From Escherichia coli (GTDB taxonomy: Bacteria > Pseudomonadota > Gammaproteobacteria > Enterobacterales > Enterobacteriaceae), in assembly GCF_003334355.1 (NCBI RefSeq), contig NZ_QOWP01000001.1: a DNA stretch of 64,000 nt; one strand, given 5' to 3'. The first letter of the stretch is position 1; the number at the start of each line of letters is the position of its first letter. The notes beneath the pieces were generated by a model. The model saw only the letters and a program-made list of their open reading frames with translations. It had not been told where the DNA came from and did no database searches. Both the position numbers and the translations under genes were made by a program. Shown here one piece after another: positions 3,320-55,412 of the stretch.

Positions 3320-3945
<626 letters not shown>

Positions 3946-21034: not shown

Positions 21035-21155
21035 GTGCGGCCTGAAAAACAGTGCTGTGCCCTTGTAACTCATCATAATAATTTACGGCGCAGCCAAGTT
21101 TTCCCTGGTGTTGGCGCAGTATTCGCGCACCCCGGTCTAGCCGGGGTCATTTTTT
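21035..21155 (+). ncRNA. arcZ: ArcZ small regulatory RNA (SraH/RyhA)
   Basis: Sequence gtgcggcctgaaaaacagtgctgtgccc...ggtgttggcgcagtattcgcgcaccccggtctagccggggtcatttttt matches ArcZ as I remember it, including the 3' seed and the intrinsic terminator; it overlaps the arcB stop convergently. Confidence 0.9.
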
Positions 21156-34204: not shown

Positions 34205-35695
34205 TTAACTTTTGGTTTTGACTAAATCGTTTTTGGCGCTGCCAAACGGCACGGCACCGCTGAATGGTTTACCGTCGATAGCGTCATGAGTACGCAACGC
34301 TTCCGGGCGCAACCAACGCTGAACGCGAGAAGGCATATCCAGCCCAATCAGCAGGATCACCACGAACGTCAGACTGAACGAGAGCGATGCCAGCGCAGTA
34401 CCCAGATCCAGACGTTGAGCGATCAACGCGCCGATGATTGGGGCCAGTGCACCGCCCAATGCGCCAACGTTGTAGGTAAAGCCCAGGCCCGCTGCACGCT
34501 GGTCGGTATCGAAATAACCGCCAATCAGTTTTGGTAAGATCCCGGCGATCCCTTGTCCAAGCATTTGCTGGAAGAACAGTAACAGACCGAGCACCCAGAC
34601 GTTTGCGCCGCCAATCGCAAATACCGGAATAATCAGCAGCTGCGAGGCCAGCAGGCTACAAACGTACGCTTTGCGGGTTCCCAGCCAGTCACCGAGGAAG
34701 CCACCTACGCAGCATCCCACCGCCGCGCCAAAGCCACTAAAGAACAGCACATTGGCTACAGTATGCGGGTTATAAGCCAGATCGGTTTTCAGATACGTTG
34801 GCAGCAGCGCCTGAATCGGCCATGAGTAGAGGAAAGCAAACAACACGACCACCATCAGCATTACGCCCGTTGGCCAGCGTTTGCCTGTACTCTGCACCAT
34901 AAAGCTGATAAAGATTGCGGCGCATAACAGCCCAAGAACAGCGACGATCGCGGCATTTTGCAGGTTACCGGCGAAGCAGAACCACAGCGCAGTAGCCGCC
35001 GCCAGTGTCATTACGATATTGGCAATGCGATGTTCACCACGGTAGAGAATATCCACCATTGTGCGTACTGGTGCTTTACCTGCGTGTTTCTCTTTCCAGT
35101 CTTCCGCTTCCGGGATGTTTTTACGCAGCCAGAGAGCAAAGATGATTGGCAAAATGCCGATAAAGAACAGCGCACGCCAGCCCCAGACCGGAACCACCAG
35201 GCTATAGACCTGAGCGGCAACGACGGCCCCCACAGAGAAGCCTGAAATCAAAAAACCACTGGCTTTGTTACGCAGATTTTTTGGCCAGCTTTCAATGACA
35301 TAGGTGGCGCTGGAACCGTATTCACCCGCCATCCCCATGCCGATGACCAGACGAGCGATAAACATGGTGATGTAGCCTGGCGCAAAGCCGCAGGCCAGCG
35401 TCCCGGCCGAGAAGAGAACGATGCTGGTGACCATTGCCAGACGACGCCCGTAGCGGTCACCCATAGCGCCGAGCATCAGGCCGCCGAACCAGCGAGAGAT
35501 AAAGGCTGCAGAGATCAGACTTGCCGCCTGCACCGTCGTCAGCCCGAATTCACCTTGTACTTCGGTGAGTACCAGGGCGATTAAAACGAAATCAAAACCG
35601 TCAAGCAGATATCCCAACCAGGCAGCGGAAAATGCGCGCCATTGTGCACGGTTGAGATGGCGATACCACGGGATATTCTGGGTTGTAGTACTCAT
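34205..35695 (-). CDS. nanT: Sialic acid:H+ symporter (MFS)
   Basis: Track ORF trimmed to [36 protein letters not shown]... (496 aa). Confidence 0.94.
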
Positions 35696-35763
35696 TGTGA
35701 GTCTCCCGCGGTGGGCGATGCCCACACGCTTTGGTATGAAAATTGTAGGGTACAGATGCGTTT

Positions 35764-35798
35764 ATTTCCCCTCACCCGGTAGGGGCGAGCGAGGGGAA
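35764..35798. repeat. GC-rich palindromic intergenic repeat (Box C-like) between nanT and nanA
   Basis: atttcccctcacccggtaggggcgagcgaggggaa; shares TTCCCCTCACCC...GAGCGAGGGGA with the element at 53611-53650. Family name is uncertain. Confidence 0.5.
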
Positions 35799-35803
35799 AC
35801 AAC

Positions 35804-36697
35804 TCACCCGCGCTCTTGCATCAACTGCTGGGCCAGCGCCTTCAGTTCTGGCAGATATTTTTCATCTACCGGTCCAAACGGTTTGCGGCACAGCGGCACA
35901 GAAACGACATCCATATAATGGAGGACAGTTTTCAGGCCGCGGAATACGCCCGTTTTGATCAGTAAATCAATGACTTTATTGCATTCAGTTTGCAGTTTCT
36001 GCGCGGTCTGGATATCGCCTTCTTTCAGCGCCTTAACGATCCCCTGATAGCGCCAGCCCATGATGTTGTAGGTACTGCCGATACCACCATCAGCGCCCGC
36101 CAGCAGACCAGAGGCGAAGATTTCGTCGTAACCGTTATAGAGCACAAGATCAGGATGTTCACGACGGATCTGCTCCATCTGATAGAGATCGCCAGAGGTC
36201 TGTTTCAGCGCACCTACGCCAGGCAATGTAACAAGTGTGTTGATCTGATCCAGGGTCAGTTTTACCCCACTCAGGGCTGGAATGTTGTACACCACCATCG
36301 GCAAACCATCCGCCGAATCAATAATTGCCCGATAGTGATCGCAGTGTTCTTCAAAGCTGAAAGGATAGTAGAACGGCGTGACGGCGGAGACGGCATCGAA
36401 GCCATAACGTTTAGCCGATGCCGCAAGTTGTTGGCTTTCGGCGGTGCTGACGCAACCGACGTGGGCGATGAGTTTAATCTTACCTTTCGCCTCTTCGGCG
36501 ACGATTTCCAGTACCTGTTCACGCTCGGAAAGGCTTTGTACAAAGGCCTCGCCGGTCGAACCACCCACGTATAAACCGTCGATGCCCTGCTGAATATTGA
36601 ACTGAACCAGGCGACGCAGACTCGCTTTATCCAGTGCTTGTTGTTGGTCAAAAGGAGTCAGGAGTGCAGCCATTACGCCACGTAAATTCGTTGCCAT
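35804..36697 (-). CDS. nanA: N-acetylneuraminate lyase
   Basis: 297-aa [53 protein letters not shown]..., DapA-family aldolase. Confidence 0.96.
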
Positions 36698-52639: not shown

Positions 52640-53569
52640 ATGGAACGACTAAAACGCATGTCGGTGTTTGCCAAAGTAGTTGAATTTGGCTCTTTTACCG
52701 CCGCCGCCAGACAGCTACAGATGAGCGTTTCGTCCATCAGTCAGACGGTGTCAAAACTGGAAGATGAGTTACAGGTAAAGCTATTAAACCGTAGTACACG
52801 CAGCATTGGTCTGACTGAAGCCGGCAGAATTTACTACCAGGGCTGCCGTCGGATGCTCCATGAAGTGCAGGATGTTCATGAGCAACTGTATGCCTTCAAT
52901 AACACCCCCATCGGGACGCTGCGCATTGGCTGTTCTTCAACTATGGCACAAAATGTTCTCGCCGGGCTGACAGCAAAAATGCTGAAAGAATACCCAGGTT
53001 TGAGCGTCAATCTGGTTACCGGAATTCCTGCCCCCGACCTGATTGCCGATGGTCTGGATGTGGTAATCCGCGTCGGCGCGTTGCAGGATTCCAGCCTGTT
53101 TTCCCGCCGTCTGGGCGCGATGCCGATGGTGGTGTGCGCCGCGAAAAGCTATCTCACACAATACGGCATACCGGAAAAACCCGCCGATTTGAGTAGTCAT
53201 TCATGGCTTGAATACAGCGTGCGGCCCGACAATGAATTTGAACTGATTGCACCGGAAGGGATCTCGACTCGCCTGATCCCGCAAGGGAGATTTGTGACTA
53301 ATGATCCGATGACGCTGGTGCGCTGGCTAACGGCGGGTGCCGGGATCGCCTATGTGCCGCTGATGTGGGTGATCAACGAGATCAATCGTGGGGAGCTGGA
53401 GATCCTGCTGCCGCGTTATCAGTCAGATCCACGCCCGGTTTATGCGTTATATACCGAAAAAGATAAGCTGCCGCTGAAGGTACAGGTCGTGATCAACTCG
53501 CTGACGGATTATTTTGTTGAGGTCGGTAAATTGTTTCAGGAGATGCACGGGCGCGGGAAAGAGAAGTAA
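52640..53569 (+). CDS. aaeR: LysR-family activator of aaeXAB
   Basis: 309-aa ORF MERLKRMSVFAKVVEFGSFTAAARQLQMSVSSISQTVSKLEDELQVKLLNRSTRS..., LysR HTH; divergent from aaeX. Confidence 0.93.
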   Translation: MERLKRMSVFAKVVEFGSFTAAARQLQMSVSSISQTVSKLEDELQVKLLNRSTRSIGLTEAGRIYYQGCRRMLHEVQDVHEQLYAFNNTPIGTLRIGCSSTMAQNVLAGLTAKMLKEYPGLSVNLVTGIPAPDLIADGLDVVIRVGALQDSSLFSRRLGAMPMVVCAAKSYLTQYGIPEKPADLSSHSWLEYSVRPDNEFELIAPEGISTRLIPQGRFVTNDPMTLVRWLTAGAGIAYVPLMWVINEINRGELEILLPRYQSDPRPVYALYTEKDKLPLKVQVVINSLTDYFVEVGKLFQEMHGRGKEK

Positions 53570-53610
53570 TTCATATTGTACTGTTACGTTGTACAAACCT
53601 GTGCCAACGG

Positions 53611-53650
53611 GTTCCCCTCACCCTAACCCCAGAGGAGCGAGGGGACCGTT
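53611..53650. repeat. GC-rich palindromic intergenic repeat (Box C-like), second copy
   Basis: gttcccctcaccctaaccccagaggagcgaggggaccg between convergent aaeR and tldD; homologous to 35764-35798. Confidence 0.5.
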
Positions 53651-53696
53651 CGTGCACGTAGAAAGATTAATTATCCTTCTGAAAATACTGAAATTA

Positions 53697-55157
<1,461 letters not shown>

Positions 55158-55185: not shown

Positions 55186-55412
55186 GGCTGCCGGATGCGG
55201 CGTGAACGCCCTATCCAGCCTACGGTTATGTTCCGGTTTGTAGGCCTGATAAGACGCACAGCGTCGCATCAGGCAACGGCTGTCGGATGCGGCGTAAACG
55301 CCTTATCCGACCTACGGTTATGTTCCGTTTGTAGGCCTGATAAGACGCACAGCGTCGCATCAGGCAACGGCTGCCGGATGCGGCGTGAACGCCCTATCCG
55401 ACCTACGGTTAT
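55186..55412. repeat. BIME: cluster of about five alternating REP (PU) units
   Basis: Repeated gccggatgcggcgtgaacgcc(c/t)tatcc and tgtaggcctgataagacgcacagcgtcgcatcaggc blocks with a roughly 120-bp super-period between yhdP and tldD. Confidence 0.85.

Follow-up and report, generated by a model that had tools for sequence, protein, structure and literature searches.

Two intergenic sites in a stretch of Escherichia coli DNA of 64 kb (the whole stretch analysed, called the window below) carry short GC-rich palindromes that resemble each other, and the locus raises the question of which repeat family they belong to, how they reached their present form, and whether either of them acts on the genes beside it. 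A search of the 64-kb window with the pattern TTCCCCTCACCC-N(2-25)-GAGCGAGGGGA gave exactly two matches, 35766-35797 and 53612-53645 on the + strand, whereas dinucleotide-preserving shuffles of the window (n = 100) gave 0. Since the pattern occurs twice in the window and in 0 of the 100 shuffles, and since both sites fold, the shared GC-rich imperfect hairpin reported at the two sites in the preliminary description is real. The 9-mer CCCTCACCC or its complement was confined to the two copies within the window, where about 0.8 occurrences are expected from base composition, and the 11-mer TCCCCTCACCC was found four times with at most one mismatch versus 0.66 expected, the two exact occurrences being copy 1 and copy 2. 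We determined the gene context from the open reading frame listing and by BLAST against 5,426 complete E. coli genomes, and the results agreed with the placement first given: copy 1 lies in the nanA-nanT spacer, which is 108 nt long and inside the nanA-nanT-nanE-nanK operon transcript, and copy 2 lies between the convergent genes aaeR and tldD (Table 1). The positions of the two sites had been given correctly, but their extents had not; the copy 1 hairpin is corrected to 35765-35799 and the copy 2 element to 53610-53654. Compared with K-12, the window is identical at the nan site and differs at the aaeR-tldD site. The annotation of NC_000913.3 has a repeat feature at neither site.

Table 1. 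Coordinates in the window of the two copies and their parts, the genes around them and a further hairpin
Feature	Position	Strand	Remark
nanT (sialic acid transporter)	34205..35695	-	downstream of copy 1; ATG 35695-35693
Second conserved hairpin	35708..35729	-	GCG-U-GUGGGC-AUC-GCCCAC-CGC; not BoxC; directly 5' of nanT Shine-Dalgarno sequence (GGGAGA)
Copy 1, two-block BoxC relic	35765..35799	-	14-bp hairpin in the nanA-nanT spacer
Copy 1, 5' arm	35799-35786	-	UUUCCCCUCGCUCG on nan mRNA
Copy 1, loop	35785-35779	-	CCCCUAC
Copy 1, 3' arm	35778-35765	-	CGGGUGAGGGGAAA
nanA (N-acetylneuraminate lyase)	35804..36697	-	upstream of copy 1 in the nan operon; stop codon 35804-35806
aaeR	52640..53569	+	converges on copy 2 from the left
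Copy 2, BoxC type A in C-rich orientation	53610..53654	+	6 bp missing from the middle block
Copy 2, outer block	53614-53623	+	CCCCTCACCC
Copy 2, type A loop	53624-53626	+	TAA
Copy 2, truncated middle block	53627-53630	+	CCCC, 4 of 10 nt kept
Copy 2, loop	53631-53633	+	AGA
Copy 2, G block	53634-53644	+	GGAGCGAGGGG
Copy 2, conserved tail	53645-53654	+	ACCGTTCGTG
tldD	53697..55142	-	converges on copy 2 from the right

BoxC is a small intergenic repeat of E. coli that was described in the 1990s (Bergler 1992; Bachellier 1990s; Hoyne and Maher 2000/2002). The names BoxC, PIT element (of Hoyne and Maher) and TMECO triplex motif denote one element (Holder et al. 2015, PMC4666352), which is built of three G/C-rich blocks, CCCTCGCCCC-TTT-GGGGAGAGGG-(TTA in type A, CCG in type B)-GGGTGAGGGG; we took CCCTC(G/T)CCCC-NNN-GGGGAGAGGG-(TTA type A, CCG type B)-GGGTGAGGGG as its canonical form. 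MG1655 holds 23 TMECO copies, all of them intergenic and without orientation bias, including five cases of inverted type A + type B pairs (PMC4666352). The same work described the collapse of inverted pairs to hairpins as well as mutated or deleted motifs, and found that the elements go with local sequence variability between strains. In another list, file 69 of the supplement to Petrillo et al. 2008 (PMC2267715), there are 22 BoxC sequences from E. coli, of which TGTTCCCCTCACCCTAACCCTCTCCCCAAAGGGGCGAGGGGACTGTCCGTG is typical. An earlier list by Bachellier et al. (1999) reportedly has 32 copies. By BLAST, 57,784 matching places were found in E. coli genomes, 18 of them on plasmids, with a median of 12 places per genome.

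We built a BoxC profile HMM from the 22 sequences of file 69 and searched the 64-kb window with nhmmer. The results showed that copy 2 matched the profile at 53611-53653 (E = 1.4e-9, 33.9 bits) with a 6-column gap in the middle block. Its K-12 orthologue, GGTTCCCCTCACCCTAACCCTCACCCCAAAGGGGCGAGGGGACCGTTCGTG, does have the three-block architecture; it is letter-for-letter the entry eco:13_BoxC, and its reverse complement is TMECO no. 14 (3,390,494-3,390,529, Table 1 of PMC4666352), which makes copy 2 one allele of a BoxC already catalogued. Besides the loss of 6 bp, one G-to-A change distinguishes it. Copy 1 retains the type B CCG loop and then the GGGTGAGGGG block, its sense strand reading CCG-GGTGAGGGG, and its match to the profile (E = 0.024, 10.8 bits in the 64-kb search) would not be significant at genome scale; because of this weak score, its membership of BoxC rests on comparative position. 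It is absent from both published lists, that of 22 copies (PMC2267715) and that of 23 (PMC4666352). A third BoxC fragment, at 43965-43990 (profile E = 1.8), fell inside the degQ coding sequence and was dismissed as chance.

Sequence, loop type and location place the two elements in the BoxC/PIT/TMECO family, and so does, in the case of copy 2, its orthology to a catalogued copy. They share with it the block sequences CCCCTCACCC and GGGGCGAGGGG, the loops that define the types (TAA/TTA in copy 2, CGG/CCG in copy 1) and an intergenic, chromosomal location not tied to mobile elements, and the ways in which they have decayed, namely a mutated or deleted motif and the collapse of a pair to a hairpin, are already on record for the family. 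They differ from an intact member in that neither has three blocks of about 10 nt with loops of about 3 nt: copy 2 has 10 + 4 + 11 nt and copy 1 two blocks, so that "BoxC relic" is the best term for either. The data directly show the identity of the two copies as well as the series of alleles at aaeR-tldD; that both hairpins are decayed BoxC copies, with identity and origin taken jointly, is quite probable. The comparison with Box C, which the preliminary description had rightly named as one to make, was positive (copy 2 at E = 1.4e-9, with its K-12 allele listed), and the notion of an undescribed family falls, the element being catalogued under three names and copy 2 being an allele of a listed copy. 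In sum, this is a known family, and one of the two copies, copy 2, has a K-12 orthologue that the catalogues already list.

What the preliminary description had said of a dispersed small intergenic repeat family distinct from REP holds good, since the REP core is found at neither site and a BoxC match is found instead; the sequence searched for at copy 1 and copy 2 was GCCGGATAAGGCG. REP/PU/BIME elements resemble the two copies as short, GC-rich palindromes of intergenic DNA that are transcribed as parts of operons, and REP occupies the exact nanA-nanT position in Citrobacter, Salmonella, Enterobacter and Lelliottia; however, the window copies have no sequence similarity to the REP core, and the REP-bearing spacers look quite unlike them. 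An Rfam 15 gathering scan of the whole window returned ArcZ and two naRNA4 matches, none at either copy. The naRNA4 (CssrE) matches lie between tldD and yhdP, at 55243-55312 and 55334-55403 on the - strand (77 and 71 bits), and the ArcZ small RNA gene lies at 21035-21142 on the + strand (118.7 bits). As naRNA4 derives from a REP element, the two matches are REP-type repeats unrelated to the BoxC copies. RSA elements, about 152 bp in length, and ERIC/IRU are further dispersed intergenic repeats of E. coli. Both are much longer (127 bp for ERIC, PMC2267715) and are set apart from the window copies by length.

At the aaeR-tldD site, the fold of copy 2 reached -29.6 kcal/mol (z -3.5) on the + strand and -32.6 kcal/mol (z -3.2) on the - strand, and with its middle block truncated the window allele can form a hairpin only. 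Strain HS has the full canonical element here and K-12 the full element with one substitution. The 6-bp deletion, in which TC(A/T)CCC is missing, is shared by EcPF14, the window and TUM1886, the last of which lacks one further base, and strain 5-1 has a 12-bp deletion. In E. coli isolate 538 (NZ_OW967795.1, 1-680), the IS4-like element ISEc13 sits inside the aaeR-tldD BoxC, the IS end abutting it at the junction ...AA/CCCCAGAGGGGCGAGGGG. We measured the aaeR-tldD length in an evenly spaced sample of 40 of the 5426 genomes, and found that about 19 (around half) had 451 bp, the length of the 6-bp-deleted form, 15 (about 37%) had 457 bp, the length of the full form, and 4 (about 10%) had 445 bp. 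The site therefore offers a clean series of BoxC decay within E. coli, from the full element through the 6-bp and the 12-bp deletion to the IS insertion. Since the deleted hexamer is located between the direct repeats ACCC...ACCC, replication slippage would be the simplest cause. Copy 2 would then have started as a type A BoxC and lost 6 bp of its middle block by slippage between the ACCC/ACCC repeats and, having no evident function, it may have been free to decay.

The sequences flanking copy 2, GTGCCAACGG (53601-53610) and CCGTTCGTGCAC (53645-53656), are complementary and lengthen the predicted stem, and its 3' tail ACCGTTCGTG is like the tails of many published BoxC copies. Together, the complementary flanks and the likeness of the tail indicate that the conserved unit may exceed the three blocks.

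For copy 1, we scanned GTDB species genomes with NanA and obtained 80 loci from 80 genomes, mostly Enterobacteriaceae, in all of which nanT lies downstream. The spacers of Pseudocitrobacter faecalis and Enterobacter sp. kpr-6 contain two full inverted BoxC elements (E from 1e-4 to 1e-11), type A in C-rich orientation coming first and type B in G-rich orientation following. The spacer of Pseudocitrobacter vendiensis (3395-3797 of the locus, 403 nt) contains five BoxC elements, four of which are repeated in tandem (period 73 nt, 94% matches); a larger unit that includes BoxC can thus undergo local amplification. Degenerate BoxC was found in the spacers of Kluyvera, REP elements in those of the four genera named above, and unrelated GC-rich hairpins in other genera; two Trabulsiella species have a spacer of 32-33 nt without a hairpin. 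At one orthologous site, Enterobacteriaceae thus carry a full BoxC pair, a collapsed hairpin, REP or nothing. All 11 significant BoxC matches in the 467 kb from the 80 loci fell within nanA-nanT spacers, and the signature 9-mer CCCTCACCC/GGGTGAGGG was found 17 times within the spacers, which add up to 8.5 kb, and a single time in the rest of the 467 kb.

The spacers of Escherichia and Pseudocitrobacter are homologous on both flanks, on the left in GTTTTT after the stop codon and on the right in AAACGCATC...TTCATACCAAAGCG..GTGGGC...GCCCACCGCGGGAGACTCAC before nanT. Between these flanks, the first element is represented in Escherichia by its outermost block on the left, CCCCTCAC/GC.., and the second by its CCG loop and outermost block on the right, CCG-GGTGAGGGG. 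These comparisons across strains and species lead us to infer that copy 1 arose from an inverted type A + type B BoxC pair, of which the outermost block of each element would have survived to make a simple hairpin. The Escherichia hairpin has about 5 nucleotides (CGCCC/CTCG) beyond what a simple junction predicts, and they could be a duplication of CTCG. If the two sites were merely independent hairpins that resemble each other by coincidence, the marginal profile score of copy 1 would be as expected; the pattern of shared 12-mer and 11-mer, seen in 0 of 100 shuffles, the restriction of the signature 9-mer to BoxC contexts, and the full BoxC pairs at the orthologous position in other genera all speak against it. 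The shuffles, the distribution of the 9-mer and the BoxC pairs at the orthologous site refute chance resemblance, which we consider next to impossible.

To our knowledge, no function of BoxC has come to be known since 1992. Folding of the nanT-nanA junction gave a hairpin of -30.0 kcal/mol (z -4.2) on the - strand, which is the sense strand, versus -19.1 kcal/mol (z -1.3) on the + strand; the sense fold is the stronger one because two A·C mismatches of the + strand are G·U pairs in the mRNA. The stem begins 4 nt past the UGA of nanA, a distance fixed in all Escherichia sequences. Among 5409 E. coli genomes, 4419 had the 61-bp element in identical form and the others departed from it at a single position, mostly in the length of an A-run, so that a near-invariant two-block nan copy contrasts with the highly polymorphic three-block locus at aaeR-tldD. 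In seven Escherichia sequences (E. coli, E. albertii, E. whittamii and two further species), 98 of 98 stem cells were paired in the sense RNA, and 84 of 98 on the antisense strand. The stem varies at four positions, all of them exchanges between wobble and Watson-Crick pairs (G-U/A-U or U-G/C-G), and both-sided compensatory changes were found at none of its pairs among the seven sequences. Four wobble-preserving changes are a small number (about p = 1/16 under equal transition rates); all four are C-to-T or A-to-G on the non-template strand, and being strand-biased transitions, they could be explained by mutation bias. A hairpin scan of the 80 spacers found hairpins nearly everywhere and the sense strand favoured in 36 of 80, i.e. 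no sense preference, the scan being a crude one (best hairpin, fixed window lengths, spacers only) that cannot show selection.

Stable GC-rich stem-loops just past stop codons, as both copies have them, recall intrinsic terminators, and the preliminary description had considered an attenuating stem-loop in the nan operon; the hairpins would then act as attenuators or terminators, copy 1 within the operon and copy 2 for the convergent aaeR and tldD. The two copies differ from intrinsic terminators in that a U-tract follows neither stem on either strand, and a terminator scan of both strands at both loci gave 0 terminator-like sites. PIT/BoxC was reported to have neither promoter nor terminator activity (Hoyne and Maher, as cited in PMC4666352). 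Among the ends listed in the Term-seq tables (PMC7815308), none falls at 33904xx or 33905xx, and a Rho-dependent 3' end of K-12 at 3,390,148 on the - strand, antisense to aaeR, is listed about 350 nt beyond the BoxC. Transcription of the - strand in K-12 accordingly continues for about 350 nt past the aaeR-tldD element, most likely as read-through from tldD, in line with the terminator activity reported as lacking. On this evidence, the attenuating stem-loop is not upheld and a terminator role at either site is very improbable. The passage of - strand transcription through the BoxC, taken together with the allelic decay, suggests that the element is under no constraint at aaeR-tldD. The copies might instead act as DNA, namely as intrastrand-triplex motifs that promote local genome instability, as proposed for TMECO. 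The unusual polymorphism of aaeR-tldD, with its 6-bp, 12-bp and 1-bp deletions and its IS insertion, fits the reported variability of TMECO, and an isolated TMECO strand does form a triplex in vitro; in vivo footprinting, however, gave no support for a stable triplex (PMC4666352), the third block is absent or shortened in each window copy, the nan copy with its two blocks varies very little within the population, and slippage between direct repeats accounts for the deletions without a triplex. We therefore regard an action as triplex motifs as unlikely.

REP hairpins in other operons are a barrier to 3' exonucleases and uncouple the levels of mRNA segments. Because neither a U-tract nor a terminator-like site follows the nan stem, an exonuclease barrier is the best guess at a function for copy 1. 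The nan mRNA would carry copy 1 as a stem-loop of about -30 kcal/mol 4 nt past the nanA stop; if it acts at all, it would most likely impede 3'-to-5' exonucleases and shield the nanA segment, and such a barrier would uncouple the mRNA levels of nanA and nanT. This step, with copy 1 as a putative barrier to mRNA decay, is put forward tentatively, and it keeps plausible the transcript-stabilising stem-loop that the preliminary description had suggested for the nan copy. The wider proposal is that the nan copy was co-opted as a selected intercistronic RNA element which shields the nanA mRNA from 3' exonucleases. The complete sense pairing (98/98 versus 84/98), the stronger and more significant sense fold, the near-invariance of the element in 5409 E. 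coli genomes set against the highly polymorphic other BoxC locus, the REP or other hairpins at the same place in most genera, and a second conserved hairpin ahead of the nanT Shine-Dalgarno sequence are consistent with co-option. On the other side, there are just four variable positions, for which strand-biased transitions suffice and which include no both-sided compensation; the hairpin-free spacers of Trabulsiella indicate that a hairpin is not required at nanA-nanT. Among the ends listed in the Term-seq tables (PMC7815308), none lies at the site (33726xx), the nan operon perhaps being poorly expressed there. No general effect of BoxC on gene expression was found, nor any association of TMECO with the function of flanking genes, distance or operon arrangement (PMC4666352), and our literature search found nothing relevant on nan mRNA processing or on a nan intercistronic hairpin. 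Weighing both sides, we hold co-option of the nan copy to be possible but doubtful. A more detailed version, in which a cleavage zone rich in A and U is enclosed between the nan hairpin and the one that precedes the nanT ribosome-binding site, so that nanA and nanT-E-K would decay and be set in level independently, is equally speculative. In evolutionary terms, the relic of a BoxC pair may, with some reservation on our part, have been taken over in Escherichia as a selected RNA stem-loop that sets the relative stability and expression of the lyase and transporter segments of the mRNA. If this is true, the nanA-nanT junction would have independently recruited REP or other hairpins elsewhere, giving a natural series for testing repeats in operons.

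A hairpin so close to a stop codon could also hinder the terminating ribosome and lower the output of NanA. Liang, Rudd and Deutscher are said to have proposed such hindrance in 2015 for REP within about 15 nt of a stop codon. The distance of 4 nt from stop to stem, fixed in Escherichia, and the high stability of the stem as sense RNA would suit this mechanism; the start of the hairpin is variable in other genera, from 0 to more than 20 nt, and hindrance of the ribosome and a barrier to exonucleases could both operate. We consider ribosome hindrance improbable.

Turning to the hairpin next to nanT, it is kept in Escherichia, Pseudocitrobacter, Kluyvera, Raoultella, Leclercia, Siccibacter and Phytobacter and is absent in Citrobacter and Salmonella. 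One of its pairs shows both-sided compensatory changes and several show one-sided ones. For nanT it might serve as a stabiliser at the 5' end or as an element of translation, and if the mRNA is processed as hypothesised it would mark one boundary of the intercistronic segment. At the other end of the region, a strong RNA 3' end of K-12 is listed in Term-seq (PMC7815308) at 3,373,531 on the - strand, corresponding to about 36652 in the window and about 45 nt into the nanA open reading frame; the nan transcript may thus be attenuated or processed at an early point, in its leader or near the start of the coding region. Finally, in E. coli AREA_499 (NZ_CP123328.1) a 12-bp deletion corresponding to about 35691-35702 of the window takes out the region in which nanT usually starts; the nanT annotated in this strain reaches further upstream, and the BoxC relic is unaltered.
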